This document shows positions 9,598 through 53,025 of a DNA stretch of 64,000 bases, one piece after another (position 1 is the first letter of the stretch; every line of letters begins with the position of its first letter). The stretch lies in assembly GCA_000092065.1 (NCBI GenBank), contig CP000593.1; one strand, 5' to 3'. This DNA comes from Ostreococcus lucimarinus. Its lineage: Eukaryota. The notes under the pieces are model-generated. The model worked only from the letters and a program-made list of their open reading frames with translations. It did no database searches and was not told the DNA's origin. The position numbers were made by a program, and so were the translations under genes.

Positions 9598-9725
9598 ATG
9601 TGTCGACATCAAACCTTACTTTTTCCCATACCCGATTGTCCGTGATGGAAAAGCGACACGACAACACTGTGACTTTCGTCGTTTCGGGGTGACGGATAGT
9701 ACTTTAAAAAATTTATCGCTATGAG
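9484..9725 (+). mobile_element. tRNA-Asn(GTT)-derived SINE-like element, full-length copy: tRNA-like head at 9484-9597 plus a roughly 130-bp tail
   Basis: The head folds as a tRNA: acceptor tcttcct/aggaaga, D-arm actc-agctggta-gagt, anticodon stem tcaga/tctgg with loop ctGTTa, T-arm gcggg-atcgaaa-cccgc, and a 41-nt insertion at the canonical intron site. Positions 9498-9725 are about 98% identical to 15433-15660, including roughly 130 bp beyond the tRNA-like part. Confidence 0.6.
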
Positions 9726-9840
9726 TAATAAAAATAAACTTTTTTTTTGAGTTGGGGCACCCCAACATGATAAAACCGCACATCGACGTTGATGTACCGC
9801 ATGTAAGATTTCTCCAGAACCAATCGTGTGAGTGAAGTGG

Positions 9841-10338: not shown

Positions 10339-10516
10339 TTGTCCTGGTTACCTATCTATCCCTAAGAAAATATTGTTGCCAAAAGTGCCTCCTCCTGCGG
10401 TTTGCAGTCACATCCGAGAGACCATAGGTACGCGTATCGCTGCGTGGGCTGCAAGGTCCGGAATGTAGATACCGAACCGCCTGATTTCACACCTGGACGT
10501 TCGTGATCCGTCGAGA

Positions 10517-10707
10517 CCTGACGAAATGACGAACTTGTTTTGTCGTCCACAAATTCGTCAACCCGTCGTTCGGTGACACTTTGTGTGTACCAATGATGAA
10601 AATGACGAAATGTTAAAATATTTTAATGTTTATTTTTATTTTAGATCTATGACAAGCAACAGTGTGGACCTTTATGAAAACAGTTCGTCATTCGTCATTT
10701 CGTCAGG
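10517..10707. repeat. MITE-like element or hairpin: terminal inverted repeats of about 18-25 bp (cctgacgaaatgacgaac ... gttcgtcattcgtcatttcgtcagg) flanking a roughly 150-bp AT-rich core
   Basis: The reverse complement of the right arm matches the left arm; the arms contain an internal gacgaat tandem. Confidence 0.45.
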
Positions 10708-11169
10708 ATCCAAACCATGGTCTTTTTGGTGTCTCGTTGAGTCTTCATATTGCAAATGTACGAATTACAAAATTAGTATGAGCACCAGACGACCGCCGGC
10801 GCGAGCTCCGTCTCCCCTGTGTACCCATTGTCCTTCAGCCACTCGAAGCACCCGTCGCGGTGAATTTCCCAATAGACGCCCTTCTCGTCTCTACCTTGCC
10901 TCAGGTGGTCCTCTTCCATTGGGACCCTGTGGCCCTTTTCCTTCTTGAAGAAGTCCTTGAGCTTATTGCCGACCTTCGTCGCGCTATCTTGACCGCGCGC
11001 AGCCGCTGGCAACCACGTCTGGTATTCGATGAAGATGTCACTGTGTGCATAAAAATGACTTGCGCTCACATCGGTGTGGGCTCACTATAAAGGACAAGCT
11101 TACATGTCGGAAGAGTTGCCCGAGTCCACATCTCCACCCTGTTCCGCTTCAGTGTCACCTAGAAAGACA

Positions 11170-12810: not shown

Positions 12811-12986
12811 GATGTACGGCGATCGACGTCTCCGCGCGCGAACGAGCCGAAGAGGCGTCGCGAAGTGCGGCGATGCGCGCGCGTCGTGCACGTGTCGACG
12901 ATTCGCGTCGTGCACGTGTCGAGGATCGTCGTACGCGACGCCCCGCGAAGCCCATCACGGATCGCGTCGCGACGCGCGTCGTAAAC

Positions 12987-13143
12987 ATGTCGACACGCAT
13001 GTCGACATATTTACCCACGCGCGTGTACGCATTGAACCCCGTGATGCATCTATATACGAAAAACGTCTCGACGCACATGTCGACATATTTCGACATATCC
13101 AAGTACCACCGAGATGTGTCGACACTGCGGCGGATGTCGACAT
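12987..13143. promoter_or_regulatory. Cluster of five perfect 10-bp palindromes RTGTCGACAY (ZDRE-like zinc-deficiency response elements) plus one half-site, in the promoter shared by the COG0523 and ZIP genes
   Basis: ATGTCGACAC at 12987-12996; ATGTCGACAT at 12999-13008; ATGTCGACAT at 13077-13086; half-site TCGACAT at 13090-13096; GTGTCGACAC at 13116-13125; ATGTCGACAT at 13134-13143. All lie between the CobW ATG (12810, minus) and the ZIP ATG (13273 or 13369, plus). Confidence 0.6.
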
Positions 13144-13272
13144 TTTGTCGTTCGCGAGTCGTGACTTATAAACGACCGCCCTCCATCGCGCCGGTTCGGT
13201 TCGTATGCCGCTTTAGTTTGTGCGCAGCCGCACTTACCGACGCCGGCGAAGACGACGACGACGACGGAAACG

Positions 13273-14802
13273 ATGACGAACGAAAACACGAAGAACACGA
13301 AGACGACGATGCCGCCGCGCGAACGCGCACGCGGTGCGAGGACGGTCGAGCGACGACGAGGGCGAACGATGCGCTGCGCGAGCGCGCTCGGTGGTGGCAT
13401 CGCGATCGTCGCGAGCGCGCTCGCGCAGCGCGGCGCGCACGCGTCCGGCGCGCACGCATTCGAATGGGCTGGAATCTTTGAGACGCCAGAGAATGAATAC
13501 GTGTGGCAGGCGCAAAAGGTGGCCGATAAGTACGCCGCCGATACCATGAAAATGGTCATCTACGACGAAATCGCCGCCGGACACGACGAGCTCGAAGCCC
13601 GCGAGGATAGCGGTGATACCGCAATCGGGGGAGCTTGTACGACGGCTAAGATACGAGATAGTGTTTTGACACCTGATAGTGGGTGTGTCAACCTTGAATT
13701 TGACAACACCTGGCACACGACGCCGTTTAAGATTAATACGACTGGCATCGACGCGATCTCAATCTTCGCTGAGCACGTTCCCACCGAGTTCGAGCGCGAC
13801 GCGCACTATCTCAAGGACCTCCACGGAGATGACGTGGTGCCAAAAGCTTCACTTCCCGAAGCATCCACCGTGAGCGAATCGAAATCAAAACCGTGGGCCA
13901 ACGCCATTGGGGCGGCAATTATCGTCAATATCGTCACACTTTCTGGTGTGGTCTTTCTCATCCCGAGTATCGCTAAGAAGCAGAAAGCGTACCCTGAAAC
14001 TGTGAGTTGCACAATTAACTCGTTTGCCGCCGGCGCACTTCTTTCGGCTGCGTTTTATCTGATGTTCTACGAAGCCACGCATTTAATCAAACCTGCTGGC
14101 TCGGATGAGGCAGAGCAGACCGCATGGTGGGCTTCCGCTTCTATCTTCGGCTTTCTCATGGCCTACTTCATCGACTTTGGTATCTCTGTCGTGTTCCCAA
14201 CTCTTGGAAATACAGCGAAGACAACCGATGCGGAACTTGCAGTCAAAGGCGCTCAAGATGACTGTGATACTTGTACTTGTAACTCACACAAGTATCGCGT
14301 TCGAAGTGGTATCATTCTTGGAGATTTCATGCACAACCTAGTGGATGGTATTTTCATTGGCTTCGGCTTTCTGAACTGCGACAGTACCATGGGATGGTCG
14401 ATCACCGCCGCGACCGTCTATCACGAAATCGCTCAAGAGCTTGCTGACTACTTGGTGCTCGTAGACCCCTTCCAGGGCGATCTCGCGCCGTTGCCGACGC
14501 TGACTTTAAACTTCGTTTCCGGCTTGAGTGTCATTCTTGGCGTCCTCATTAGTGTTGGATCGGGAAATAACAACGACTTCTGGCATGGACTGCTGCTCGC
14601 CTTCGGTGCTGGAGTCTATCTGCAAATCGCCGCCGCAGAGTGCATGCCCCGAGTATCAGTGAGCGCCACTTCACCTCGTCTTCGCGCGACGAGCATTCTC
14701 ACCTTCATCGTCGGCGTTGTTGCCATCAGTCTCGTGCTCCTCAACCACAAGCATTGCACAGGCGGTGGCGGTGGCGGAGACTCACACGCACACGCGCACT
14801 AA
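13273..14802 (+). CDS. ZIP-family (Zrt/Irt-like) metal transporter
   Basis: ZIP signature in TM helices (GDFMHNLVDGIFIG ... YHEIAQELADYLVL). ATG at 13273; an alternative ATG at 13369 gives a signal-peptide-like start MRCASALGGGIAIVASALAQRGAHA. Confidence 0.85.
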   Translation: MTNENTKNTKTTMPPRERARGARTVERRRGRTMRCASALGGGIAIVASALAQRGAHASGAHAFEWAGIFETPENEYVWQAQKVADKYAADTMKMVIYDEIAAGHDELEAREDSGDTAIGGACTTAKIRDSVLTPDSGCVNLEFDNTWHTTPFKINTTGIDAISIFAEHVPTEFERDAHYLKDLHGDDVVPKASLPEASTVSESKSKPWANAIGAAIIVNIVTLSGVVFLIPSIAKKQKAYPETVSCTINSFAAGALLSAAFYLMFYEATHLIKPAGSDEAEQTAWWASASIFGFLMAYFIDFGISVVFPTLGNTAKTTDAELAVKGAQDDCDTCTCNSHKYRVRSGIILGDFMHNLVDGIFIGFGFLNCDSTMGWSITAATVYHEIAQELADYLVLVDPFQGDLAPLPTLTLNFVSGLSVILGVLISVGSGNNNDFWHGLLLAFGAGVYLQIAAAECMPRVSVSATSPRLRATSILTFIVGVVAISLVLLNHKHCTGGGGGGDSHAHAH

Positions 14803-15026
14803 TGAGAGCGGTAAAAAAATGTCAATTACTATCAAATCAAGTTGTGGCAAACACACCCACGGCCACTGACGGAGATCTATTTTTCAAGCTAGAGGATCAT
14901 ATAAATTGTAAATCGAAACGCTCTTCGTAATTTACGGCACCTGTTCCTCGATCTCCTGGCGAACATCGATGAATTATTTCGATAAGATGTCCCAGATGTT
15001 ACCCACACCACGGTACTTGTGAAGCT

Positions 15027-15369
15027 TAATCCAGATACGCGCGCACGCCTTTCTGAAGCATGGTCGGTACCTCGGCTTTCAACTTGTCTGGGAGCGTCGC
15101 GTCGGCGTCCTTGACCTCGCGCAGAAAATCGAGCACCCTATTGGTGGAGAACTGTCAGGGAAGGATCCAAGGTGGCGGCATTTGATACACAGGTTGCGCC
15201 AGGCTTTGTTAGACAGCAACGGACTCGATTTTACATCATCCGCCAGTATTGCAATTCCTACACGCTTCCCATTTAGCCAGTGCTTGGGCTCCTCGAATTG
15301 GTCTGTTTCGGGATTATACAGACTGAGCATCTCTGGGGTCAAATACTCGTCCCACACGGAGGCGTTCAT
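15027..15369 (-). CDS. Small hypothetical protein, tentative two-exon model
   Basis: Exon 1 runs from the ATG at 15369 (MNASVWDEYLTPEMLSLYNPETDQFEEPKHWLNGKRVGIAILADD). A putative GTAAAA donor, TCTAAC branch and pyrimidine-rich ...ccttccctgacag acceptor join it to exon 2, FSTNRVLDFLREVKDADATLPDKLKAEVPTMLQKGVRAYLD*. Unspliced, the frame reads into a low-complexity tail. Weak model. Confidence 0.25.
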
Positions 15370-15432
15370 CAGGTGCCCATCGAGTTCCTTGTATTGCTTC
15401 AATCTCGTCGCGGTATCTCTGTAAACAATTTT

Positions 15433-15660
15433 GCTGGTAGAGTGTCAGACTGTTAGGAAAAAGTCTCCGTCGAATATGACGGCTGCTCCGATAGAGATCT
15501 GGAAGCCGCGGGATCGAAACCCGCAGGAAGAGATGTGTCGACATCACACCTTACTTTTTCCCACACCCGATTGTCCGTGATGGAAAAGCGACACGACAAC
15601 ACTGTGACTTTCGTCGTTTCGGGGTGACGGATAGTACTTTAAAAAATTTATCGCTGTGAG
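15433..15660 (+). mobile_element. Second, 5'-truncated copy of the tRNA-Asn-derived SINE-like element
   Basis: About 98% identical to 9498-9725 (two to three substitutions). It lacks the 5' acceptor stem and part of the D-arm, as expected for a 5'-truncated retroposed copy, and sits between the JmjC gene's 3' end and a small gene. Confidence 0.6.
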
Positions 15661-15770: not shown

Positions 15771-16943
15771 TCACACGAGTCGCCCCCCCGCGAGATAATC
15801 GGCGACTCGCACGACGCGCGCGTTCGCGTCGAACGCGCCCGCGTGGACGTCGTCGTCGCCCGCCGCGAGCGCGGCGCCTTCGTCGTCGAAATCCACCTCG
15901 TCGAGCGCTCGGTAGCTCTCCATCAACGCGGGATCTTTGGCGGCCATGAGCTTTAAATCTTCCAACACGCGGTCCAGATTGACGTCGTCGACGAAGTTTC
16001 CCGCGAACGCCACCGTGCAATCGAGGTTTCGAACGGCGTGCGGCGAGCCGCCCGGCACGAAAAGCACCTCGCCCGGGCCAAGATCGACGTCCCATCGGCG
16101 CGCGCCGAATTCACGCGGGAGCGGTAACATTCCCATCTCTTCTTGTTCCTCCAACGGTGGCATCGCGGGATCGAGCGTGCCGCGCGACCAGCTCGGCCGT
16201 AAAAACGCGAGCGATTCGCGCGAGAAGACGGTCCATCGCTTCGTGCCGCGCACCACGGCCATGAAAAAGTGCCCCTGCCACTGATCGACGTGCAGGGACG
16301 ATCGCGTGTTCTTCGCGGCGACAAACAAGCTCGGCCACGACCGTGAAAATGCCGTCAATCGCATCGTGCGCTGCATGTAATCGTGTGCCACGTACGCCGG
16401 TACGCGCACGCTCTCCGACAACGACGGCAGCTTGAGCGGAATCGACGTGTCGTACAAGTAACTCCCCGCCCCTCGATCGTCCACGACTTCCGCGAAAAAG
16501 TCCTTTAAATCCAAAACGTCCGTCACCTCGCACGACAGCGTCGCGCGTCGGTGACCATCCTTCCTCGTGACGGCGACTTTTTTATTCCCGGCGCGCCGCG
16601 TCAACCACGCGCACGTCTCGCCGTCCGCGCCGTCCTCCGTCAGCGCGCTCCCGAGCCCCTCGATCACGACCGGGGTATCCGTGGCGACGTATTCGAGTCG
16701 AAAACGTCGCGGCGTGAGATCGCGCGCGTGCACGCGCGCGACGTCGCGTCCCGTCGTCGTCGGTTTTTCGACACCCGAATCTGCGGCGGCGGCGGCGGCG
16801 AGCGTCGCGCGCGCGCGCTCGACGCGCGCGACGATCGCGTCGACGTACGCGCGACGACCGTCGTCGGTCTCTCGGGCAGCGCGCGCGGCGAGATCGGCGC
16901 GCTCGACGTCGAGGCGCGCGATCTCTTCGTCGAAAAGCGTCAT
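15771..16943 (-). CDS. JmjC (cupin-like) domain protein
   Basis: ATG at 16941-16943. JmjC core: WQGHFFMAVVRGTKRWTVFS ... EVLFVPGGSPHAVRNLDCTVAFAGNF. Confidence 0.7.
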   Translation of the reverse strand: MTLFDEEIARLDVERADLAARAARETDDGRRAYVDAIVARVERARATLAAAAAADSGVEKPTTTGRDVARVHARDLTPRRFRLEYVATDTPVVIEGLGSALTEDGADGETCAWLTRRAGNKKVAVTRKDGHRRATLSCEVTDVLDLKDFFAEVVDDRGAGSYLYDTSIPLKLPSLSESVRVPAYVAHDYMQRTMRLTAFSRSWPSLFVAAKNTRSSLHVDQWQGHFFMAVVRGTKRWTVFSRESLAFLRPSWSRGTLDPAMPPLEEQEEMGMLPLPREFGARRWDVDLGPGEVLFVPGGSPHAVRNLDCTVAFAGNFVDDVNLDRVLEDLKLMAAKDPALMESYRALDEVDFDDEGAALAAGDDDVHAGAFDANARVVRVADYLAGGRLV

Positions 16944-17055
16944 CTTGTGCGGGACGGCGTCGGCTCGACCGCGCTCGACTCACTGCGACTGGCTCTGACT
17001 CTTCTACATCTTCGGGACGCGGCGTCCCGATCCCTAACGCGTTCGCCGTCGCGAC

Positions 17056-18285
17056 CTATCGTCGCGGCGCCTCGTCGTCGTCGTCCGCGGCGCGCTCTAA
17101 CAACCGTCGCGCGGCTTCGAAGACGCTAAAAGTAATCGCGCTCGCGGGGGCGGACTTGATCAGACTCGGCATCAAGCCCTTGTAAAACCCACCCACGCCC
17201 TCGCTGCGCGCGATCGTTCGCACGGCGGCGAAGAAACTTTTGTACGCGCCCGCGTCGACGCGTTGGCCGTAGGCTAAACTTCGAGAGAATCCGGCGACTT
17301 GGAATCGTTTCTTGACGACGTCGAGCGGGTGAATGACGAGCCGCGCGATGGTGCCCGCGGCGAACCCGCACGCGAAATCGTTCTCCCCGAACACTTCGGG
17401 GAGGTTTGATTTCAACGCAGCGTACGAGCCGAACTGCACCGCGCTCGCGGGAACGATCTCGGCGAGCGTCACGGAGACGCCCGCGTACAAACCTTTGGCG
17501 ACGCCGCGTTCGCGAACGACGCCGAGCGCGGCGTCGAACACGTTATTATACACCTTCGGGTGACCCTGACTCGCCAGTAACGTTCGAATGACATCGAACG
17601 GGTACGTCGCCACCGTCGCCACCGATCCCGCGGCGGCGCCACCGATGAAACTCACCGGCAGTCCCGCCGTCGATCCCGGTTTCGCGCGCTCCCGCTCCCT
17701 CGCCGCCTCCTTAAACTTATTCAACACCGTGAACTGTATCGCCGTGTACGGCACCCACAGCAGCAGCGCCGGCACCGTCCCCGCCCACATCGCGCGCCCC
17801 CCCTCCTCGCGCAGTATCGTCCGCGTCGCGTCCGCCAGCCCTCGATACTTCCCGCTCGCGCCTCGCTCGACTTGCACCTGCAACCGAATCTTAATCACGT
17901 CCAACGGCGCCACGCACACGCGCGCCGTCGCGCCCGCCAGCGCGCCCGCCGTCGTCGTCACCCACACCGCCGTCGTTCGCGCGTCCTCGCTCGCGTCCCT
18001 CGCGATTCGCGTCCTCCCTCTCGTCGCGTCTCGCGTCGTCGTCGCCGTCGTCCCGCTCGCGGCTCGCGCGCGCGCCTCCTCTCGCGTCCCTTCGCGTCGT
18101 TTCGCCGACGTCGACGCCTCCGCGCCGCGCGCGCTCGCGCGCGACATCGTCGCCGTCGTCACCGTCGCCGCGAGCGTCGCCGCGGCGAGCGCGCGCGTCG
18201 CGCGCGTCGTCGTCTCGCGTCGCTTTCCGCGCGCGTGGAATTGGAATTTGAATCCCGGCGCGCCGTCGCCGAACGCCGCGCGCAT
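17056..18285 (-). CDS. Mitochondrial carrier family protein (SLC25), thiamine-pyrophosphate-carrier-like
   Basis: Three carrier repeats (PLDVIKIRLQVQ; PFDVIRTLLASQ; PLDVVKKRFQVAG) and YRGLADATRTILREEG, resembling TPC1/SLC25A19. ATG at 18283-18285; an internal ATG (MSRASARG) is an alternative start. Confidence 0.8.
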   Translation of the reverse strand: MRAAFGDGAPGFKFQFHARGKRRETTTRATRALAAATLAATVTTATMSRASARGAEASTSAKRREGTREEARARAASGTTATTTRDATRGRTRIARDASEDARTTAVWVTTTAGALAGATARVCVAPLDVIKIRLQVQVERGASGKYRGLADATRTILREEGGRAMWAGTVPALLLWVPYTAIQFTVLNKFKEAARERERAKPGSTAGLPVSFIGGAAAGSVATVATYPFDVIRTLLASQGHPKVYNNVFDAALGVVRERGVAKGLYAGVSVTLAEIVPASAVQFGSYAALKSNLPEVFGENDFACGFAAGTIARLVIHPLDVVKKRFQVAGFSRSLAYGQRVDAGAYKSFFAAVRTIARSEGVGGFYKGLMPSLIKSAPASAITFSVFEAARRLLERAADDDDEAPRR

Positions 18286-18668
18286 TCGCGCGCCGCGCCG
18301 GCGCGTTCGAACGCCGACGTTCGAGCGCGCGTCGCGTCGTCGCGTCGGCGCCGCGCCGCGCCGACGTCTCGCGCGATTCGACGGCGCGCGCGCGATCGAG
18401 CGCGCGACGATGCTTACACTAAACTATCACGTACACTAAATACACACACCCGTATGTCCGAATACGTACGACCAGTATTGTGATTCATATTTACCCCATC
18501 ACGTATATTTTCTCGAAACGCTATCCACGACGGCGCCACGCGCCACACCGCGACGCGACGCGACCGCGCGACGCGCCGGCGCGCGCTCGACCGCGCGCGC
18601 GCGACTCGAGCGTCGACTCGACCGCGCTCGACCGCGCGCGAGCGCCGACGGACGCCGCGGTGGCGACG

Positions 18669-18688
18669 ATGCCGACGACGACGATGCG

Positions 18689-18719
<31 letters not shown>

Positions 18720-20681
18720 CGCGGCGGGCGACGCGCGCGCGAGGGACGCGCGCGCGACGACGGGCGACGACGCGCGATGCCTCGATGCGGCGCGACGGCG
18801 CGGGACGAGCGCGCGATGGGACGCGCGCGATGGGCGGGACGAGGGCCGGGACGCGCGCGAGCCGGGACGCGCGCGGCGGCGTCGGGCGACGATAAAAAGG
18901 CGCTGACGCTCGAGGAGCGCATCGCGAGCGGAGAGTTCACGAAGGCGTCGTCCACGGGACCGTTTCGAAAGGTGGCGGACGGGCTGCGGGGACTGGTGCC
19001 CGAAGACGCGGGACCGGTGGGGCGAGGGGTGTCGCTGGCGCTCGCGAGGTTATCGAGGCGGTGGCGCGCCGAGGCGATGTCGAAGATGCCGGTGGCGAGC
19101 GGGGACATTCGCGAGATCGCGGGACAACCGGTTTTTGTGCCGCTGTATAAGCTGTTCTTGGCGTACGGGGAGATGTTCGTCCTGGCGATCGGGCCGAAGA
19201 AATTCGTCGTCGTGAGCGACAACGCGGTGGCCAAGGAGATGTTGCTCACGCAGGCGAAGAGCTTCTCCAAGGGATTGCTGTCGGAGATTTTGGACTTTGT
19301 CATGGGTCAGGGGTTAATCCCGGCGAACGGTGAGGTGTGGAAGATTCGACGCAAGGTGATCGTGCCGAGCTTGCACAAAAAGTACGTCACGTCCATGGTG
19401 GACATGTTCGGCGACTGCGGGTTGAAGGGGATGTCGCAGCTCGCGCGCGCGGAGAAGGCGAACGAGTCGGTGGAGATGGAGAACTTTTACTCGCGATTCG
19501 CCTTGGATATCATAGGCAAGGCGGTGTTCAATTACGATTTCGACTCCTTGTCCACGGACGACCCCGTGATCAAAGCCGTGTACACGGTTTTGCGCGAAGC
19601 CGAGTACCGGAGCGTGACGTTTATTCCCTATTGGAAGGTTCCCCCGCTTCGCTGGCTCGTGCCGAGGCAGCGTCAGTGCCAGGAGGCGCTGCAAGTGGTG
19701 AACGACACCTTGGATGACCTCATCAACCGATGCAAAGCCGTGGTGGAGGAAGAGGATGAGGAATTCGTCGAGGAGTACATGAACACGGACGATCCGAGCA
19801 TTTTGCACTTTCTCATCGCGAGCGGCGACGACGTGACGTCCAAGCAACTTCGCGATGATTTAATGACGCTCCTGATCGCCGGCCACGAAACCACCGCCGC
19901 GGTGCTGACGTGGACGACATTTTTGCTCGCCAAGCACCCCGAAGTGAAGGCCAAGGTATTCGAGGAGGTTGACCGCGTCGTCGGCGACCGCAACCCGACG
20001 GTGGCGGATATGCGCGCGCTCGTGTACACGACGCGCGTCATCAACGAGTCCATGCGACTTTACCCGCAACCTCCGGTGTTAATCAGGCGCGCGTTAGAGC
20101 CCGTCACCCTCGGAGGGTACAACATCGACGCCGGAACCGACTTCTTCATTTCGGTTTGGAACTTGCACAGAAACCCGCGGATTTGGGACGAACCCGACGC
20201 GTTCAAGCCCGAACGCTTCCCGATCGACGCCCCGATGCCGAACGAGTACACCGAAGAGTACGCGTACTTGCCCTTCGGCGGTGGCCAGCGCAAATGCGTG
20301 GGCGATCAGTTTGCTATTTTTGAGTCAATCGTGTCGCTCGCCATGCTCATGCGACGATTCGACTTTGAACTCGACGAGTCCAAGCACCCCGACGGCGAAT
20401 GCGGCATGACGACGGGCGCGACGATTCACACCACGAACGGCTTGCACGTCAAGCTCAAGCGCCGCGATGGGCGAGGTGGGCGAGAGATGGACGGCACGTA
20501 CGTCACCGGTATGGCGTTGAGCAACCTGGAAGACGTCGACGTCGTTCGAGGGTCCATCGACGCCCCGACGGCGAGCGCGGACGAGTTCGACGCCGCCGTC
20601 GACGACGTTGACGGGGACACGTCGGAGAAACTCGAGCGCGCGAAAGAGATCATCGAGGAAGAGACAGCGAAGGCGCGCTAG
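18669..20681 (+). CDS. Cytochrome P450, CYP97 family (carotenoid hydroxylase, LUT1/LUT5-like) with a Ser/Thr/Arg-rich transit-like N-terminus
   Basis: Heme loop FGGGQRKCVGDQFAIFESIVSLAMLMRRF; I-helix LIAGHETTAAVLTW. Long collinear similarity to plant CYP97 (IASGEFT, FVPLYK, DDPSILHFLIASGDDV, MTTGATIHTTNGLHVKLKRR). The track start at 18480 is GTG; the first ATG is at 18669. Confidence 0.9.
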
Positions 20682-20845
20682 TCGTAGGCAACGAAAATCG
20701 CATCGATCGTTCATCATCAGTAGCTCAAACGAATTTTAATTCTATTCATCGGAACGTCGAACGCCGAAGCGCGGTGGTGTCTCGCTTAGCGATAACGCTT
20801 ATAATATCGGTATTAAGAAAGAATCGCGCGCGCACGCAGTCTAGT

Positions 20846-22237
20846 CTACAACAAGAGTTTATTAAGCGCATCGTCCATGTCGTTCACCACCACCGTCGCC
20901 GTGGACGTGTCGGAGTCGAGCGGATAAATAAACGTCACCACGGCGGTGATGTCGTCGGCTCGCTCGTCGTGCTCTTGCCAACGCGAGAACGCGGCGCGCA
21001 CGATGGCGTGCGCGGCGCGTTCGGCGGCACCGGGCATGTTCTCCTCGTAAAATTTCTCCGCGATCGCCATCGTTTCCGCGCTGGACATGAACTCGAACAC
21101 GCCGTCGGAGGCGACGACGACGCACCGCGTCGACGGCTCGGCGTTCAAGTCAAACTCGCTCATCTCGGGCGTCGCGCTCACGCCGAGCGACTTCCCCACG
21201 GTGTCACCGATCGAGCGAGTGAACGCGCATCCGGGAAAACGATAACCAGCCATGAAAACGCGCGGCGGGTCGTCGCAATATTCCTCGTCCGAACCCGGTT
21301 CGCCGTCGCCAAAGTCCTCGTGCGCCTCGGTTTCGCCCAAAACCATGCCGATGGTGGCGAACGTCATCGGCGACGTCGCCTCCGCTTTCATCCGCGCGCG
21401 CTCGTCCGCGCGAAAGCACGTCTGATCATGCGTCAAATCTCTCACCTCCCATCGCCTCGTGTGTCGATTCCCGACCGCGACGCCCGCCGCGCGCTCGACG
21501 CCGACGACGCATCGCGAATCCCCGACGTTTCCCACGCGCACCACGCCTTCGTCATCAAACAGCGCCGTGATCGCCGTCGACCCCGAAAACGACGCGTTCT
21601 CCCCCATCTCTTTGCACACCACCGCGTTCACCGCCTCGAACGTCCGCGCGTACCCATCCCTCAGCGCCGCGCCTCCCCGCGTCTCCCTCGCCAGCGTCTC
21701 CGCGAACGTCGCCCGCGCGATTTGCGCGCACTCCTCCCCGTGCTTCCCGTGCCCATCGAACACCCCCACCAGCACCCGTCCCGTCTCTCGCCGCGCCACC
21801 GCATCGTTTCCCTCCCCATCGATCACCGCCTCCTCGTGCGCCATCTCCCTTCCCTCCCACGTCGCGCACGCGTCCTGATTCACGTGATGATCCTTGTGCG
21901 GATAACATCCCTCCTGGCAGCACCACGCCACGCGCGCCGCGAACCGCGCGCTGAGCGCATACGCCCGTTCGCTCGCCACCTCCCGTCGCGTCGCGTCCAT
22001 CTCGAACCTCAGCGGTCGCGCGCGCGGCGGCTTCGCGCGCGGTCGCCACGCCGTCGCCGCGCGTCCCGCGCGCGCGTTATCCGCTTTCGCGTCGGTCGCT
22101 GTCGGCGCGTTTGCGTCGATCGCGGGCGTCGCCGCGCGACGCGCCGGATCGAACGCGACCGTCGCGCGCGCCGCGTCGTGGCCATCGCGCGCGGGCGCGC
22201 GCTCGCGCGCGCGGTACGCGCCGGGCGCGAGCGCCAT
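20846..22237 (-). CDS. Protein phosphatase 2C (PPM family)
   Basis: ATG at 22235-22237. PP2C motifs: VFDGHGKHG, GSTAITALFDD, VGNVGDSRCVV, VASDGVFEFMS, ADDITAVV. Confidence 0.85.
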   Translation of the reverse strand: MALAPGAYRARERAPARDGHDAARATVAFDPARRAATPAIDANAPTATDAKADNARAGRAATAWRPRAKPPRARPLRFEMDATRREVASERAYALSARFAARVAWCCQEGCYPHKDHHVNQDACATWEGREMAHEEAVIDGEGNDAVARRETGRVLVGVFDGHGKHGEECAQIARATFAETLARETRGGAALRDGYARTFEAVNAVVCKEMGENASFSGSTAITALFDDEGVVRVGNVGDSRCVVGVERAAGVAVGNRHTRRWEVRDLTHDQTCFRADERARMKAEATSPMTFATIGMVLGETEAHEDFGDGEPGSDEEYCDDPPRVFMAGYRFPGCAFTRSIGDTVGKSLGVSATPEMSEFDLNAEPSTRCVVVASDGVFEFMSSAETMAIAEKFYEENMPGAAERAAHAIVRAAFSRWQEHDERADDITAVVTFIYPLDSDTSTATVVVNDMDDALNKLLL

Positions 22238-22480
22238 GTGACGCGTTACCGGGACGCGGCGGCGCGTGGCGGCGGGGCGACCGACCGTATGTGCGTAAAC
22301 AGTACAGACGACATTTTCGACGCCCGCGCGTCGACGTCTCGAACGAATTCGTTCTCGAATACGACGTATGGAGGCGCAGTCAGCGCGCTGTTTGCGCGGT
22401 GCTTCAATACGGGCGGTGTGATTTAATTAGCGCCGACGGATCGCGCGATCGACGGCGCGCGCGCGACACGGCGACGCGCG

Positions 22481-24018
22481 ATGCGCGACCTGACGTCGAC
22501 GGTGCGACGCGACGCGACGCGAGCGCGACGCGACGCGCGACGGGAGACGACGGGAGACGACGGGCGGCGACGCGACGAGCGGACGGCGAACGCGAACGCG
22601 GCGACGCGGCGGCGGCAGGGTTTGCGCGATCGCGACGGCGACGCGGCGCGCGCGACGGCGGCGGACGCGCGAGGACGCGGGCGAAGAGTAACGCATCGCG
22701 AACGCGTCGCGGACGCGAAGGGCCGACGCGCCGCGGTCGAGCGCGAGGACTGACGGAGCGCGGGACGACGACGCAGATCGCGGCGCGGCTGGACGCGCAC
22801 CTGACGCTGCCGCTGCTGGAGTTCGCGCTCGCGGAGGGCACGCACGATGCGAAGTCGCTGCGAGAGGCGAAGCTGGCGACGCTGGTGAAGACGAAGATGT
22901 GCGATTGGGCGGAGGAGGCGCGCGCGGAGGCGAGCGGGTCGGGATCGGCGGCGGAGGCGAAGGCGAGGCGGGACGCGACGGTGGAGGCGCACGCGGCGCT
23001 GGGGAAGGCGGCGGCGCGGGCGGTGAAGTTCGCGAGCGATGGGGCGCTGATCAAGAACTTGCGACGGGATAAGGCGGCGAACGCGAAGTTCGCGGAGGAT
23101 AATCACGGGGTGACGAGCGCGGACGTGGACGCGCTGTACAAGTTTGCCAAGTTTGAGTACGAGTGCGGCGATTACGAAAACGCCTCGGAGCACTTGGGCG
23201 CGGTGCAGTTGTTGAGCGCGGACAACGAGCGGTGCGAGAGCGCGCTGTGGGGGAAGTTCGCGGCGGACATTTTGTTGCGGAACTGGGGCGGGGCTCTGGA
23301 CGACATGAATAGGTTGCGAGACGCGTTGGAGAGCAACGCGAGCACGAGCAACCTCGTCAAGATGAAGCAGCGCGCGTGGTTGTTGCATTACGCCCTGTTC
23401 GTCTTCTTCAACCACCCGAACGGTCGCAACTTGATCATCGACGTGTTGTTCCAGGAGCGATACATGCAAGCGGTGCAACAAGAGGCGCCGCATTTGTTGC
23501 GTTACCTCGCCGTCGCCATCGTCGCCAACAAGAAGCGCCGCAACATGCTCAAAGACTTAGTGAAGATTATCCAGAGCGACGTGTACGACGATCCCGCGCT
23601 CGACTTCGTCGTCGCGGCCTTCGTCGACTACGACTTCTCCAAGACGCAAGAGATGCTGAAGAAGTGCGACGCGATGATTGAAAAGGATTTCTTTTTAATC
23701 GGCTGCAAGGACGCGTTTGACGAAAACGCTCGACAGTACGTCATCGAAAACTACTGCAAGGTGAACAAGCGCATCGACATCGCCAACTTGGCGCAAATGC
23801 TCGGTATGCCCGCCGCCGACGTCGAGGCCACCATCGCGACTCTCATCCGCGGCAGTAAGCTCAACGCGCGAATCGATTCCGAAGCCGGCTTCGTGCACGT
23901 GCACGTCGAGAAGAAATCCGTCAACGAGCAAATCATCGAAAAGACCAAAGCCTTGCTGTCCAAGACCACCGCCCTCACGCAAGCCGTGTTGGCCAACACC
24001 CAGGCGCAGGCGTATTAA
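22481..24018 (+). CDS. EIF3E: Translation initiation factor eIF3 subunit E (INT6, PCI domain); two exons: join(22481..22501, 22777..24018)
   Basis: Exon 2 reads IAARLDAHLTLPLLEFALAEG ... FKFAKFEYECGDYENASEHL ... PCI domain, matching eIF3e ([25 protein letters not shown]). There is no ATG in frame upstream of exon 2. A 7-codon exon 1 (ATGCGCGACCTGACGTCGACG = MRDLTST) is followed by GTGCGA; the intron has ACTGAC at 22749-22754 and a CGCAG acceptor at 22774-22776. The spliced N-terminus MRDLTSTIAARLDAHL aligns with eIF3e. Confidence 0.75.
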
Positions 24019-24097
24019 CGACAATTTGTCATCGTCAACGCACCGGTATAGTTCGCGCCGCGCCGCGTCCCTCGCGTCACTTCGCCTCGCGCGCGCG

Positions 24098-24475
24098 ATG
24101 TCCCCGCCCCTCCGTCGCCTCGCGCGCCTCGTCCCGCGCGTCGCCGACGCGCGCGCGTTCGCGTCCGGCGCGGGCAAAGACGTCGTCCGCCGCGACTCGA
24201 GCGACGTCGCGTCGTCGTCGTCGTCGTCGGACGCCAATCCTTGGCGACCGGTGGTGGACCGCGAGACGCGGCGCGTGTACTTTTGGAATCCTCGCACCGG
24301 CGAAACCTCCGCGGTCGGCGCGCCGCGCCCCGCGACGGAATTTTTAGCGGACGATCCAGGCGCGTCCGCGCGCGAGGGAATCGGGACGCAGATCGGGTCG
24401 GCGTTCGCGATGGGCGCGGGCGCGTCCCTCGGTTTCGCGGCGGTCGCCGTCGCGGCGAGAATCGCGTTCGGTTGA
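24098..24475 (+). CDS. Small hypothetical protein with a presequence-like N-terminus, a WW-like segment (NPWRPVVDRETRRVYFWNPRTGETS) and a C-terminal hydrophobic segment
   Basis: First ATG in a 149-codon ORF whose track start is TTG. Weak. Confidence 0.3.
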   Translation: MSPPLRRLARLVPRVADARAFASGAGKDVVRRDSSDVASSSSSSDANPWRPVVDRETRRVYFWNPRTGETSAVGAPRPATEFLADDPGASAREGIGTQIGSAFAMGAGASLGFAAVAVAARIAFG

Positions 24476-24700
24476 TCGCGAGCGGTTCTTTAAAGACGCG
24501 ATCGATCGCGCGGATGGCGCGAACGCGCGTGGATCTCGTAGCGCGCTGTTGTTACAAAAGAATGGTTTCGTGGGTGCATCGCGGGATGGTTTCGTGAGCG
24601 CGTCGCGAGTTCGCGACGGGACGCCGACCTCGACGGCGTCCTCGCCGTTCCGACCAAATTTCACTCAAAAAATGTTTCGCCGACGCGCGACCGGTCCGCA

Positions 24701-25297
24701 TCACAGCGCGTCTCGCGAGGATAGACGACGAGAATAATCATCGCTCGACGGCGTCGTCGTCGCCGCCGCGCGCTCGAATTCTCGATCGGAATCTCGAAAT
24801 AAAATCCCGAGCGCCTCGAGCGCGGAGCCCCCGCGGGTCTGTAGAATTTCCTTCATCGGCGCCACCGAGGCGTAACCCACGCGAGGCTTCGCGCGTCGTT
24901 CGCCCTCGTCCGCGCGCGACGATTCCGACGAATCGTCGCGCCGTTCGATCCCGAGCGCGTCGAAATCTTGGAAAAGCGTCCCCGCGCGTTCTCGTTCTCG
25001 TTCTCGTTCTCGTCTCGGGACGTCCCGCGCGCGCGCCTCTTCGCTCTTCGCGCGCCGGTGCTTTCGCGCGTCGCGCGAGACCGCGCGCGGACGAAACTCG
25101 ACGCGCGCGTTCGCGTCCTCGCGCTTCGGCGCGCGTCGCGCGCGGCGCGGCGACGCCGGCGCGCTCGCGACGTCCCGTCGCGCCGCCGCGTCTCGCCGCG
25201 GCGAGGGCACCTTCACCCGGCTCGACGACGTTCCCATCGCCGGCGACCGCGCGAGCGCCGGAAGCGCGTTCCCGTGTTCGTCCGTGATCAGGCACAT
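24701..25297 (-). CDS. Low-complexity Arg/Glu/Ser-rich hypothetical protein; doubtful
   Basis: ORF from an internal ATG (MCLITDEHGNALPAL...) to a stop. The C-terminal 70 aa look protein-like (GTLFQDFDALGIERR ... YASVAPMKEILQTRGGSALEALGILF), but the region is GC-rich and repetitive, so coding is uncertain. Confidence 0.2.
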   Translation of the reverse strand: MCLITDEHGNALPALARSPAMGTSSSRVKVPSPRRDAAARRDVASAPASPRRARRAPKREDANARVEFRPRAVSRDARKHRRAKSEEARARDVPRRERERERERAGTLFQDFDALGIERRDDSSESSRADEGERRAKPRVGYASVAPMKEILQTRGGSALEALGILFRDSDREFERAAATTTPSSDDYSRRLSSRDAL

Positions 25298-25448
25298 GCG
25301 CCCGCGCGCGTCTCGGACGTCGCGCGCGAGGTGGCCGCGCCGACTGTCCGGAGACGCCCACCCCGAGCGCACGTCGCGAACTGCGGCGCGGCGTCGACCG
25401 CGACCGCTCGCGCGGCGACGCGCCGCGTCGATTTTCGTCGATTCGATC

Positions 25449-25603
25449 CTCGGCGGTATCGGAACGCGCCGATTCTCGGCGGTCTCGGAACGCGCGACGA
25501 GTCGGGAACCGATGGGCGCGGATTTTCGTTTGGTCGTTGCCAACGCTACGACGCGAACGCGCGCGACGCCTGACGACGCTACGACGCGAACGCGCGCGAC
25601 GCC
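25449..25603. repeat. Two short tandem duplications: ctcggcggtNtcggaacgcgc x2 at 25449-25495, and a roughly 33-bp unit (acgacgctacgacgcgaacgcgcgcgacgcc) x2 at 25540-25603
   Basis: Direct inspection. Confidence 0.5.
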
Positions 25604-26085
25604 ACGCGCGCGACGAAAGAATACAAGGAATACGCGCCGCCGACGACGGCGAAGAACGCGACGACGGCGAAGGCGGCGAACCACTCGCGCGAGACGCGCG
25701 CGCCGTCGGCCGCGGCGGCGACGCCGTCGGCCGCGGCGGTCGGTTTCTTTTTCTTTTCGTTTTCGCGTCGTCGAGCCGCGCCGTTCGACGCGTCGCCGTC
25801 CGCGTCATCCCGCGACGCGTCTTCGCGCGCCGCGGCGACTTCGCGCGCTCGCAAGAACGCGTCGATCTCGGCCATTCGCCGCGCCTTCTTCTCGGCTTTG
25901 TCCAGCTCGCGGCGCCGCGTCGCCGTCGAGGGCGGTTTCGCCGCGTCGATCGAGGTCGTCGCCGTCGTCGCGGCGTCTTCGCTCGTCGTCGCGACGTCCG
26001 CGCGCGCGACGCGCATCGCGGCGCGGTCGACGCGCGCGGCACAGTGCCGCGCGAGGATCGAATCGATTCGCGTTCGTGCGTCGCG

Positions 26086-27405
26086 ATGTCGGCGTCGCGC
26101 GCGCTTCGTCGCGTCGTCGCGGGCGCGTCGAACGCGTCGCGACCCGCGCGCGGCGCGTCGGCGGTCGCGGACGCCGCGCCGCGCGTCGGCGGCGGCGAAG
26201 GGCGCGAATCGACGTCGTCGTCGATGCCGGCGTCGCGGTGGCGTCGCGGCGCGCGCGCGCGCGGCGCGTGCGACGGGACGACGTCGTCGCGGTGCGCGCC
26301 GTCGTCGTCGTACCTGGAGTCGAAGCGTCGACGCGCGGCGGTGGCGGCGGCGATCGCGCGGTCGACGCGCGCGGCGGCGGCGGCGGCGGCGCGGCGAGCG
26401 CGCGCGTGGGACGCGACGGCGCGCGCGGACGCGCGCGACGGCGCGTACCGCGACGACGGCGCGCGTCGCGTCGAAAAGTTGTCGCGGGTCGGCGTGCTGG
26501 GCGCGCCGAACGCGGGGAAGAGCGCGCTGGCGTGCGCGCTCGTCGGCGACGCGGTGAGCGCGGTGAGTCGAAAGACGAACACGACGCGGACGCGCGCGCT
26601 GGGGGTGCGCACGGTCGGGGACGCGCAGGTGGTGTTCGTGGACGCGCCGGGGATCGTGGGGCGCGAGCACTACAGGAACGCGGCGCACGCGAGAAAGGTG
26701 GAGGACGCGACGGCGCTGGCGAGCGAGTGCGACGCGTTGGTCTTCGTCGTGGACGCGGCGAGACAGTTGGAGCGACGGGATTTGCGCGTGCTGGAGGCGG
26801 TGCGAAAGACGCGAGCGGCGCTGGGGGAGATGCGCGCGCCGCCGGAGGCGGTGCTGGTGCTGAATAAGGTTGATAAGATTCCGAAGGAGCGACGCGCGGG
26901 GTTGACGAAGATGGTGGACGATTTCCGCGCCGCGGGGGATTTTGAATTCGCGCGCGTGTTTCCCGTCAGCGCGCTCACGGGGGCGGGAACGAGAGCGCTG
27001 ATGGATCACATCGTCGCCGGCGCTCGGGAGGCGCCGTGGGAGTTCGACGCGACGTCGACGAGCGATATGACGCCGGCGCAGAGGGCGCTGGAAATCGTGC
27101 GCGAGAGCGTGTACGACGGCGTGCACGAAGATTTACCGTACGGCATCGACATCGCGCACGTCTCGTGGGAAGACTTTAGAAACGGTGACGCGCGCATAGA
27201 GCAAAATATTTTAGTCGACACCGCGTCGCAGAGGAAAATAGTCGTCGGAAAGTCGGGCGAAGTCGTCGGGCGAATCGGCATCAACGCCAGAGCGATGCTC
27301 GAGCGCGCGCTCAATCGCAAAGTGCACTTGATCCTGAACGTGAGACTGAAGAAGAAGAAGAAGAACTATCGCAGCGATGACGTCGTGTTCGCGGAGCAGT
27401 ACTGA
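26086..27405 (+). CDS. Era-type GTPase with a C-terminal KH domain and an organellar presequence-like N-terminus
   Basis: G-motifs GAPNAGKS, TTR, DAPG, NKVD, followed by a KH domain. The candidate start MSASRALRRVVAGAS... is at 26086; an alternative ATG lies at 26224. The track ORF start at 25537 is upstream arginine-rich read-through. Confidence 0.8.
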   Translation: MSASRALRRVVAGASNASRPARGASAVADAAPRVGGGEGRESTSSSMPASRWRRGARARGACDGTTSSRCAPSSSYLESKRRRAAVAAAIARSTRAAAAAAARRARAWDATARADARDGAYRDDGARRVEKLSRVGVLGAPNAGKSALACALVGDAVSAVSRKTNTTRTRALGVRTVGDAQVVFVDAPGIVGREHYRNAAHARKVEDATALASECDALVFVVDAARQLERRDLRVLEAVRKTRAALGEMRAPPEAVLVLNKVDKIPKERRAGLTKMVDDFRAAGDFEFARVFPVSALTGAGTRALMDHIVAGAREAPWEFDATSTSDMTPAQRALEIVRESVYDGVHEDLPYGIDIAHVSWEDFRNGDARIEQNILVDTASQRKIVVGKSGEVVGRIGINARAMLERALNRKVHLILNVRLKKKKKNYRSDDVVFAEQY

Positions 27406-27542
27406 TTAGTCGTAGGCGTAGTCGTAGATGGACGCGGCGCGGACAACCTTCGGGGCGTCTCGTAGCGGTAAACAACAACAAATCAATCACAACTGCACAA
27501 TAACGTTAAACACGACGCGCCTCGCTTCGAAGCGCGACGCGA

Positions 27543-28484
27543 CTACACGGTTTTCAAAACCTTCGCGTCTTTCGTCTCTCTGGACGACGACTCAAAGTAC
27601 CTCCTCGTGGTTTCGATGACGGTGAAGTAAATCACCCCGCCCAAACCGATTTCCAGCGCGCGCGGCGCCGCGCCGCGAAAGAAAAACGACATCCCGAACC
27701 TCTCCTTCAGTCGTTTCAACCCCGCCAATCCCTTTGGATGCGTCTTGAGATCGATTCCCATCGAAGACGCGCACACGTGCGCCGTGCGCGAGACGTCAAA
27801 CGGCGTCGTCACCAATCCCGTGAGACCGCCCGCGACGCCGCCGATGATCGCCGTCTGTCGCTTCCCCAGCGCTCTCTTCTTCTTCGTCTTCTTCCCGCTC
27901 TCGTCCGCCGCCGCGCCCTCGATCGCCAGCGTCGCTCGTTTCATCGCCTCGAACGCGCTCATCTGGATCGTGTCGAACGGCAGTTCCCTCGCCAGAAAGC
28001 TTCCGAATCCCGCGAACAGCTCTCCTCGTCTCGCCGACAGCCTCGCCGCCGTCGCCAGGCTCAACCGCGACACTTGCATTCGCCGCGCGATCAGCTCCAT
28101 CGGCGCCAGCACCGCGCTCGACGCCAGCGCGCCGAGCATCGCCGCGATCGACGGGTCCAACCCGAGCGTGCTCTTCGCGCACTCGTACGCCGACATGAAC
28201 AACGCGGTGCCCGGCGCCGCGCCGAGCAGCTCCGCCGCGACGCCGCCGTACAGCCGGTCCGCGGTCAATCGCCCGCCCGCCTGCGCGCGCGTCTTGAGCG
28301 TGTTCAGCGGGAACAGCACGAGCTGGCACGCGATGCCGGCGCACGCGCCGCTCGCGATGCCGACGCGGAGGGAACGCGCGAACGACGGCGGTCGGTCGGT
28401 CGCCGACGACGAAGCGTCGCGGCGCGTTTCGCGGCGCGCGCGCGCGCGATCGGCGTCGGCAGGGACGCGGGAGGGAGGCGGCAT
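27543..28484 (-). CDS. Mitochondrial carrier family protein (SLC25)
   Basis: ATG at 28482-28484. Three repeats with FPLNTLKTRAQ, PMELIARRMQ, PFDVSRTAHV. Confidence 0.85.
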   Translation of the reverse strand: MPPPSRVPADADRARARRETRRDASSSATDRPPSFARSLRVGIASGACAGIACQLVLFPLNTLKTRAQAGGRLTADRLYGGVAAELLGAAPGTALFMSAYECAKSTLGLDPSIAAMLGALASSAVLAPMELIARRMQVSRLSLATAARLSARRGELFAGFGSFLARELPFDTIQMSAFEAMKRATLAIEGAAADESGKKTKKKRALGKRQTAIIGGVAGGLTGLVTTPFDVSRTAHVCASSMGIDLKTHPKGLAGLKRLKERFGMSFFFRGAAPRALEIGLGGVIYFTVIETTRRYFESSSRETKDAKVLKTV

Positions 28485-28661
28485 GCGCGCTCGACCCGGG
28501 CGTCGCCGTGCGCGCCGCGCGCGCGCGGCAGGGGCGCGGAGTGGCGCGCGATGGCGCGGCGATGGACGACGGGCGACGCCGCGAGCGAACGCGCGAGAGG
28601 GACGGAGACGCGAAGGAACGAATGCGCGGTCTTAGCGTTGAAACCGAGGCGCGTCGCGCGA

Positions 28662-31425
28662 TCACTCGAGCGACTTGGAGACGATCTCGAAGACGTTTTC
28701 GCTCAGACCCGTCTTGGCGGCGATGCGCTCGAGCTGCGCCTTCATCGCCGACGCGCGCGTCGGCTCGAATTTGCGCCAACGCGTAAACGCGGACACCATG
28801 CGAGAGGCGACTTGGCCGTTGAGATCGTCGAGCTCGAGGACGATGTCGGCGAGGAATTCGTAACCGGAGCCGTCGATGGCGTGAAAGTTGGTGGGAGAGG
28901 CGCAGAAACCACCGATGAGGGAGTACACTTTGTTGGGGTTCTTGATGTCGAAGGCGGAGCCGGCGGCGAGCGCGCGAACGTTGGCGAGGTTGTTCGGGAG
29001 CGACGACGCGGCTTGGATGCTGAGCCATTTGTTCATGACGAGCGGGTCGTGCGACCACTCGGCGTAAAACGCATCGATGGCTTTGATGCGTTCGTCGCAG
29101 TCTTTGCCGCTGAGCGCGCTCAGGGCGGCAATCTTATCCGTCATGTTGTCCGCGGCGACGTAGCGCTCGTACGTCATCGCGGCGATTTCCGGCGCGTCCA
29201 AATACGACAAATATCCGATGCACGCGTTTTTCAGCGATCGCGCGGCGCGATCGGCGGGTTCGTTCGAATACACCGCGGCGCTGTTCGCTTGCGCCGTGGC
29301 TTCCAACTCAGCGCGAAGCTCCGTGGCGAGCGTCTTCATGACAAAGTCGCGAGCGGCGTGCACGGCGGCGGGATCCACCGTGCCCTCTTCGAGCATGTCG
29401 CTCAGCTCGCCCTCGGAAGGCACCATCATGGCGCGCGCGATGAACGCCTTGTCCGCGTCGGCAGCCTTGGCGCCCGAAAGAATCGTGCGCATCGCCGCCG
29501 TGATGGCGTCGTTCATCTTGAATGACTGCTCGCCGCCCTTGATCAGATCCAGGCAGAGGTTTCTGAGCAGCGTCTGCCCAGCCTCCCATCGGTTGAACGC
29601 GTCCGAGTCGTTCGCCATGAGGAACAACAAGTCGTCTTGCGTCAAGTTGGTCGTCAAACGCACGGGCGCGCTGAAGTTGCGCAAGATGCTCGGCACGGGC
29701 TTGGCGTCGACGCCGGTGAAAGTGTACGTCGCCGAGGCTTGATCGAAACGAAGCACCGCCGTCGTGCCGTGGGATTTGCCGTCGATCGTGAGGTTCATGT
29801 CTGCACCGTCGGGACCAACGAGACCAACGGCGATCGGGCACAAGACCGGAACCTTGGAGTCTTGACCGGGCGTTTTCGGAACCACTTGCGAGCATTCGAG
29901 GGTGAACGTCTTCGCGGCGGCGTCGTAAGACCCGTTCGCGGTGACGCGCGGCGTACCCGCTTGGGAGTACCAGGGCTTGAACGTGGACAAGTCCGCACCG
30001 TTGGCGTCGCACATGGCGGCGAAGAAATCCTCCGTCGTCACCGCTTGACCGTCGTGACGTTCAAAGTACAAATCCATCCCCTTGCGGAACCCATCCTTGC
30101 CGAGGAGCGTCTCGTACATGCGCACGACTTCCGCTCCCTTTTCGTAAACTGTCACGGTGTAAAAGTTATCCATCTTAATGTACGATTCCCGGGCGAATCC
30201 GGTGCGCCATCGGACCCGCGTCTTGGGCGAATTGCGCCATGCGAAGGCGCGAGACGTCGCCGATGCGCTTGACGCCTCGCGAGTTCATATCCGCGCTGAA
30301 CTCTTGGTCTCTGTACACAGTCAGCCCTTCCTTGAGGGACAGTTGGAACCAATCACGACACGTCACACGGTTTCCAGTGTAGTTGTGAAAGTATTCGTGC
30401 GCCACGACACCTTCAATGGCGGCGTAATCGGCATCCGTGGCGCTCTGCGGCGTCGCCAACACGAGACGCGAGTTGAAAATGTTCAGCGACTTGTTCTCCA
30501 TGGCGCCCATGTTGAAATCGTCCACGGCGACGATGTTGAAAAGCTCCAAGTCGTACTCCAAACCATACGTGTCTTCGTCCCATTTCATGGATTTGATCAA
30601 GCTCGTCATCGCGTGCGCGCACTTGTCCAAGTTGTGCGTCTCGGTGAAGATGCGAAGCGTCACTTCTTTGCCCGTCATCGTCTTGAATTTATCCTCCACC
30701 ATCCCGAGATCACCCGCGACGAGCGCGAAAAGGTAACACGGTTTTGCCCACGGATCTTCCCACACGGTGAAGTGCTTACCACCCTCCAAATCTCCAGAAT
30801 CCACCAAGTTTCCGTTGCCGAGCAGCACCGGATACTTCGTCTTATCCGCCGTGATGCGCGTCGTGAATATCGACATCACATCCGGTCTATCTTGATAAAA
30901 CGTGATTCGTCGGAAACCTTCCGCCTCGCATTGCGTGCAAAAGTTCCCAGACGACTTATAAAGTCCCTCGAGCGCGGTGTTCTCTTGCGGCTTAATCGTC
31001 GTCGTCACTCGCAAATCAAACGCCTCCGTCGGCAGCGCGCGCAGCGTGATCCCCTTCCCCGTCCGTTCGTACGTCGTGAATTTCGCGCCGTCCACCTCGA
31101 TCGCCGCCAACTCCACCGATTCATCGCCGTTCAGGAACAACGATTTCCCATTCGCATCGTTCGCCGGTCGAACTCGAATCGTCGACGTCACCGTCGTCGT
31201 CGCCTCCCCGAGCTCAAAGTCCAAATTCACCCTTTCGAACGCGTACGCCGGTCGCTCGTAATCCTTCAGATATATCGTCTTCGGCGCCTCCGTCGGCGTC
31301 TCCGTCGCCGTCGTCATCGCGCGCGGCTTCACCGCGCTCGTTCGCGACGTCGCGTTCGATGGTTTCGGTCGTGACGTCAGCGCTCGAAACGCCGCGCTCG
31401 CGACGCCTCGCGCGCTCGATCGCAT
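28662..31425 (-). CDS. M1 aminopeptidase N (bacterial PepN type) with a transit-like N-terminus; the reading frame is broken by a single extra nucleotide near 30178-30180 (possible pseudogene or sequence error)
   Basis: ORFs 30175..31545 and 28662..30173 are collinear with PepN. The first carries the zinc site [28 protein letters not shown] and ends ...[10 protein letters not shown]. The second begins [25 protein letters not shown], matching E. coli ...[23 protein letters not shown]. Deleting one C restores GIVIKMDNFY. Start ATG at 31423-31425 ([13 protein letters not shown]...). Confidence 0.8.
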
Positions 31426-31698
31426 CGTCGGCGCCGACGCTCGCTCGGGCGTCGTCTCGGGGATTCGTCGCGGCGCGCGCGAGCGTCCGGGCGCGCGTCG
31501 TCGTCGCGCTGTGCGGCGCCGAGCGCGACTGCGAGCGAAAAGCACACTTTCCAGCGCTTCAAAACGCGGCGACGCGGCGCGCGTCGCGTCGAGCGCGACC
31601 GCGGCGCGCGCGCGCGTCGCGAAGGCTTTATAACGGGCGCGCGCGGCGTCGGCGCGCGGAATCGCCGCGCGACGCGCGCGAAAGACGGCGAAACGTCG

Positions 31699-52965: not shown

Positions 52966-53025
52966 GAATGAATGAATGCGCGTATCGATACAAACTCTGC
53001 TGGAGTGATCACTAGTAGAAACTTC

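Follow-up and report, generated by a model that had tools for sequence, protein, structure and literature searches.

A PepN-type aminopeptidase gene of Ostreococcus lucimarinus carrying a one-base frameshift, with an intact second copy annotated in the same strain

The DNA analysed here, referred to as the window, is a stretch of 64,000 nucleotides from contig CP000593.1 of the Ostreococcus lucimarinus assembly GCA_000092065.1. It has a G+C content of 61%, and its genes are eukaryotic, including those for a mitochondrial carrier, a DDX5-type helicase, an eIF3 subunit, TAF2 and an adaptin. On the minus strand, two open reading frames at 30175..31545 and 28662..30173 abut with frames one base apart, and they are collinear halves of a single PepN-type M1 aminopeptidase. 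Pfam places Peptidase_M1_N and profile positions 2-141 of Peptidase_M1 in the upstream frame, and positions 150-216 of Peptidase_M1 together with DUF3458 and DUF3458_C in the downstream frame. Because the profile is divided 141/150 between the two, they represent one PepN-type M1 gene that is cut inside its catalytic domain. All four domains of the PepN-type architecture (Peptidase_M1_N, Peptidase_M1, DUF3458 and DUF3458_C) are present, spread over two reading frames.

The N-terminal half (30175..31425, minus strand) runs from an ATG, with the protein beginning MRSS, to a premature TAA, and includes Peptidase_M1_N and all but the last third of the catalytic domain. The ATG at 31425 is the earliest in the upstream frame. 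A second ATG at 31317 (MTTATE...) is the start used in the annotated paralogue described below and in many metagenome gene calls. The 36 residues between the two starts (31318..31425, minus strand) are rich in R, S, A and T and resemble a transit peptide; they lie within the 920-aa gene calls of relatives and outside the 884-aa annotated model. On composition, they are a possible targeting peptide. The C-terminal half (28662..30173, minus strand) comprises what remains of the catalytic domain, followed by the Ig-like (DUF3458) and ARM-repeat (DUF3458_C) domains, and ends at a normal stop. Plus-strand antisense frames of 398-595 aa also lie over the gene, among them 27738-29525 and 30178-31374; these are by-products of the 61% G+C content, which leaves few stops, and are not genes.

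The active-site residues of the enzyme are distributed over the two frames. In the numbering of the 884-aa model, the upstream half carries the GAMEN exopeptidase motif at residues 271-275 (30493..30507, minus strand), the HEXXH zinc-binding motif, here HEYFH, at residues 307-311 (30385..30399, minus strand) and, by its position in HEXXH-X18-E, the third zinc ligand Glu330 (30328..30330, minus strand). GAMEN, HEXXH and Glu330 are invariant among 44 aligned relatives. In the shifted frame, translation reaches a TAA at 30175..30177 (minus strand), such that the product stops after residue 380. The codon for Tyr386, in an NFYT motif at 30159..30161 (minus strand), matches the PepN catalytic tyrosine, a residue known to be catalytic in M1 peptidases. 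The codon is present, but it lies 3' of the frameshift and not in one frame with the zinc site.

The position of the frameshift was established by nucleotide alignment to syntenic environmental contigs that are 98.6-99.7% identical to the window, such as L001 and L002. The single gap falls in a run of G residues at 30188..30190 (minus strand), where the window reads CCCGGG and every other sequence reads CCCGG. The intact form, CACCCGATTCGCCCGGAATC, is found in all 27 of the environmental contigs that cover the site, each with an intact gene, as compared with the +G form, CACCGGATTCGCCCGGGAATC, of the window. A second change lies close by. At 30200, 10 nt upstream of the extra G, a C to G substitution private to the window converts codon 373 (30199..30201, minus strand) from CCG, for proline, to CGG, for arginine; the codon is CCG in 27/27 contigs and in the intact paralogue. 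Among 44 relatives aligned, down to 58% identity, position 373 is proline in 43 and arginine in none. In the same alignment Arg375, Pro376, Tyr379 and Ile380 are invariant, and Ser378 is found in 41 of the 44.

The initial annotation had recognised the two frames as halves of one PepN-type M1 aminopeptidase, and the positions of the frames and the Pfam assignments bear out both the gene family and the one-base frameshift. The bases that it quoted agree with the sequence. Its placement of the extra base, at C30180, is wrong by 8-10 nt, given that the alignments to the 27 contigs give the G run at 30188-30190. The repaired peptide that it proposed, GIVIKMDNFY, would replace the invariant Tyr379 and the nearly invariant Ser378, where relatives read xSYIK. 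Deletion of C30180 is therefore ruled out as a repair, both by xSYIK in every relative and by the placement of the gap in the G run. The description of the halves as otherwise intact is not borne out, as it overlooked the private Pro373Arg change, a damaging missense mutation.

A protein search with the reconstructed sequence returned thousands of full-length relatives, the six closest of which are 80-99% identical. The junction in relatives begins AGPMAHP[IV], with the same reading in the six closest and in 14 further members of the closest cluster. The +G allele was sought in JGI metagenome contigs, where five matches all carried the intact allele. Likewise, truncated products of 380, 416, 456 and 503 aa, as well as versions with Arg373, had no match in the public protein collections searched.

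An exact-sequence look-up identified an intact version of the gene in the same strain, which the initial annotation, confined to the window, had no means of seeing. With one G removed and Arg373 restored to proline, the window gene encodes exactly the 884-aa protein ABP01169.1 (XP_001422810.1, UniRef100_A4SBP7), which is recorded as a predicted protein of O. lucimarinus CCE9901 on a 321,799-bp chromosome. It is a single accession, and its number directly precedes ABP01170, the second copy of the MC transporter. Neighbouring genes in the window also have exact matches in CCE9901, with the MC family transporter at 27543-28484 matching XP_001421144.1, a frame at 15771-16943 matching XP_001421140.1 and a frame at 20846-22000 matching XP_001421142.1. 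These three neighbours each have two sets of accessions that run in opposite order, ABO99433/35/37 on a 528,469-bp contig and ABP01174/72/70. Because the neighbours have paired accession sets, the segment is present twice in the assembly of the strain. The stretch annotated twice in CCE9901 spans at least JmjC to PepN (15771-31425 of the window).

According to a published paper (PMC2367439), chromosome 21 arose when duplicated regions of chromosomes 9 and 13 fused. From this description and the protein accessions, we infer the duplication and the near-identity of the copies. The order of the accessions and the sizes of the chromosomes further suggest that the window is part of chromosome 9 or 13, with the intact copy on chromosome 21. 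An intact gene between the same neighbours, in the same gene order, is also found in three chromosome-scale environmental contigs (526-531 kb), so the window locus is the native one. Across four genes (1,971 aa), the only protein differences between the two copies are the two changes 10 nt apart. The gene in the window therefore has what is expected of a duplicated-gene pseudogene, an intact paralogue in the same genome; besides the indel, the only protein change relative to that paralogue is Pro373Arg, which lies 10 nt from the indel and affects a nearly invariant residue.

The reliability of the surrounding sequence was assessed by comparison with population contigs. Over 22 kb compared with 11 such contigs, the PepN site is the only private frame-breaking indel in conserved coding sequence, and the other indels are intergenic or in the hypervariable 5' part of a GTPase gene. 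In a further 21 kb, the only private indel is a 1-nt change near 52962, in a variable CATT microsatellite upstream of an open reading frame. A generally error-prone assembly is ruled out, given that no other private coding frameshift was found in about 43 kb compared with population contigs. Within the PepN gene there are five other haplotype-private substitutions, of which four are synonymous and one, at a variable site, is K869T. The same five substitutions are seen in an independent Logan contig (L003, from run SRR23274481), which matches the window at 100% identity over 3,640 bp, including 28662-30057, and which begins 133 nt 3' of the frameshift. Both that run and SRR5799334 carry the CCE9901 haplotype. 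Because the five substitutions are confirmed by L003, the haplotype is real and the gene was under constraint up to the lesion. Of the window-private changes in the PepN gene, only the two clustered ones lack independent confirmation.

Several other features of the window vary between haplotypes. The CATT microsatellite, at about 52,966-52,985, lies directly upstream of the open reading frame 50008-52965, and its copy number varies between contigs and shifts the start chosen by the gene caller, to give 949, 985 or 1001 aa. The 5' part of an Era/KH-type GTPase gene on the minus strand, at about 25,470-26,000, is hypervariable among haplotypes that are otherwise 99% identical, with many indels of 1-389 nt and gene calls that range from 303 to 759 aa between contigs; it is probably a low-complexity N-terminal or non-coding region. 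The mitochondrial-carrier gene (27543-28484) has a 3-nt in-frame insertion at about 27914, for a protein of 313 rather than 312 aa. This insertion is specific to the CCE9901-type haplotype, in that it is common to contigs L002-L005 and absent from the usual environmental allele.

Direct repeats of 228 nt at 9498-9725 and 15433-15660, 99% identical and 5,935 nt apart, flank a cassette of about 5.9 kb (about 9726-15432) with two genes, one for a CobW-family GTPase (11170-12915, minus strand) and one for a ZIP metal transporter (13273-14802, plus strand). Environmental contigs L029 and L032 have the cassette, and L030, L031, L033 and L034 lack it and retain a single copy of the repeat. This looks like a presence/absence polymorphism of a gene pair for metal (zinc) homeostasis, and it probably arose by recombination between the repeats. 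At 56800-60141 on the plus strand lies a TAF2 homologue with a Peptidase_M1-like domain, a TAF2 Ig-like domain and TPR domains. No other protein of the window besides this one and PepN has an M1 fold, and the TAF2 homologue is not an aminopeptidase paralogue.

Taken together, the results very probably describe the native-locus copy of a nuclear PepN-type gene that is broken as deposited and that has an intact duplicate elsewhere in the assembly of the strain. The window copy, on the 528-kb chromosome, would carry the G insertion and Pro373Arg, and the second copy, on the 321.8-kb chromosome, would encode an intact 884-aa enzyme in which every other residue is identical. Translation of the window copy as written would stop after residue 380, past GAMEN and the HEXXH-E zinc site and before Tyr386. 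The resulting 380-residue product would lack Tyr386 and both C-terminal domains, and it is predicted to be inactive because the catalytic tyrosine is absent. The downstream frame of 503 codons would presumably not be translated from the same mRNA in a eukaryote, and an mRNA with such a premature stop would probably be degraded by nonsense-mediated decay. Judged from the coding sequences, the intact copy would supply the function, and aminopeptidase activity would be expected from the intact paralogue alone.

The origin of the lesion can be read in two ways, and these are the two options, a sequencing indel and a very recent pseudogene, that the initial annotation had put foremost. There is an even chance that it is a mistake in the record, made in base calling or in the consensus of a GC-rich, duplicated region of this Sanger-era assembly. 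The two anomalies lie within 10 nt of each other, both at the boundaries of C/G runs in a GC-rich and partly palindromic stretch, and these sole protein-level differences between the copies in 1,971 residues are seen nowhere else. Furthermore, few reads may underlie the consensus where a Sanger-era assembly is duplicated. A real mutation, with very recent pseudogenisation of a redundant duplicate, falls a little short of an even chance. In its favour, the window is clean elsewhere, the loss of one copy is tolerable once a gene has been duplicated, and clustered mutations that combine an indel with a substitution do occur. Proximity of the two changes, within 10 nt, points to one event or to one bad stretch of consensus. 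In a fuller and somewhat more tentative form of the second reading, the copy at the ancestral locus has just died, the young duplicate on chromosome 21 keeps the function, and the indel and missense change arose as a single clustered event.

Any account other than an error or a real mutation of a redundant copy is improbable. Loss of the only PepN-type aminopeptidase of the strain, with physiological consequences, might be supposed from the window alone, given that the lesion is at the native locus, the one common to chromosome-scale environmental contigs, and that the window has no second PepN-type gene, as its TAF2 homologue has an M1-like domain only. However, an intact protein of the same strain with 883/884 residues identical is annotated on another chromosome, and the neighbouring genes are likewise annotated twice, which makes such a unitary loss very unlikely. 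More doubtful still is programmed +1 ribosomal frameshifting, in which a base would be skipped near CCG-GGA or at CAU-UAA and the window copy would yield a full-length enzyme. The two frames do differ by +1, and the zero-frame stop four codons past the insertion is superficially like those of prfB and antizyme. Yet the paralogue in the same genome, 27/27 near-identical contigs and 44/44 more distant relatives are all in frame. Production of the conserved ESYIK would require the shift to take place on CCG-G, but the P-site tRNA has no way of re-pairing there in the +1 frame; after a shift at CAU-UAA the peptide would read GIVHK, with the invariant Tyr379 and Ile380 replaced. Nor was a stimulatory RNA structure found, in that a 141-nt stretch that begins immediately 5' of the site and extends downstream is no more stably folded than shuffled versions of it (z = -0.70). 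The initial annotation had ranked programmed frameshifting last, and it is rejected here on conservation, motif and structure.

Repair at the level of RNA is the least credible of these alternatives. It would involve either removal of a micro-intron of 10 nt, GTACATTAAG (30174-30183, GT...AG), or a transcript that is edited or that slips at the G run. Removal of these 10 nt does restore the frame and joins ...RPGI to MDNFY, but the product would be without the conserved Ser378, Tyr379, Ile380 and Lys381, and in the paralogue and all relatives these 10 nt are part of the coding sequence. A run of three G residues is too short for transcriptional slippage. To our knowledge, 10 nt is far below the length of any known spliceosomal intron. 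The short introns of Ostreococcus are 40-65 bp (PMC2367439), which also counts against a micro-intron of this size.

With a redundant copy that is either mutated or mis-sequenced as the preferred explanation, the recorded sequence represents either the remnant of a gene or a gene that was mis-sequenced, and it is not a functional member of the family because its zinc site and Tyr386 are in different frames. There is no new mechanism here, but rather a well-known enzyme gene in a segmental duplication already described for the published genome. The biological weight of the finding is small, as it concerns at most a very young pseudogene in a known duplication and otherwise a base-calling error. 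If the loss at the ancestral locus is real, the window would show a gene in the act of relocating, first duplicated and then lost at its original site, and relocation of this kind could help to make Ostreococcus lineages incompatible with one another. The annotation of the locus should mark it as a pseudogene or as sequence of low quality, and the right way to repair it is to take out one G at 30188-30190 rather than C30180. Counts of M1 peptidases or of lost genes in O. lucimarinus should take XP_001422810.1 as the intact copy.

The closest counterpart is the XP_001422810.1 copy, which shares 883/884 residues with the window gene once one G is removed, including the haplotype-private Thr869, and which has the same neighbours (MC transporter, PP2C and JmjC), with identical proteins. 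It differs in that it is in frame, has Pro373 and lies on the 321,799-bp chromosome in opposite order by accession numbers, whereas the window copy has the extra G and Arg373. Green-lineage orthologues, such as those of Micromonas commoda (C1E8T8), Bathycoccus and land plants, are 56-72% identical from end to end; their Pfam architecture is the same and their junction invariant, and their sources name them aminopeptidase N or puromycin-sensitive aminopeptidase. None of these is frameshifted, and each has an uninterrupted coding sequence at the junction.

The likeness to programmed +1 systems (prfB, antizyme, and Ty1/Ty3) is one of geometry only, a +1 change near an in-frame stop. In contrast to those systems, the window gene has no conservation of the shift, no shift-prone codon pair at the position that restores the peptide, and no stimulatory structure. 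The full-length gene aligns end to end, over residues 13-883 and with E about 1e-255, to the solved PepN structures of Neisseria meningitidis (2GTQ/4QHP) and Escherichia coli (2HPT/2DQ6), and it has in common with them the four-domain layout, GAMEN, HEXXH-X18-E and the tyrosine of NFYT. At the junction, Neisseria PepN reads RPASYEEMNNFY. The window gene differs from bacterial PepN in that it is nuclear and eukaryotic and may have an N-terminal extension for targeting, and in that the frame of the window copy is broken between the zinc site and the catalytic tyrosine.
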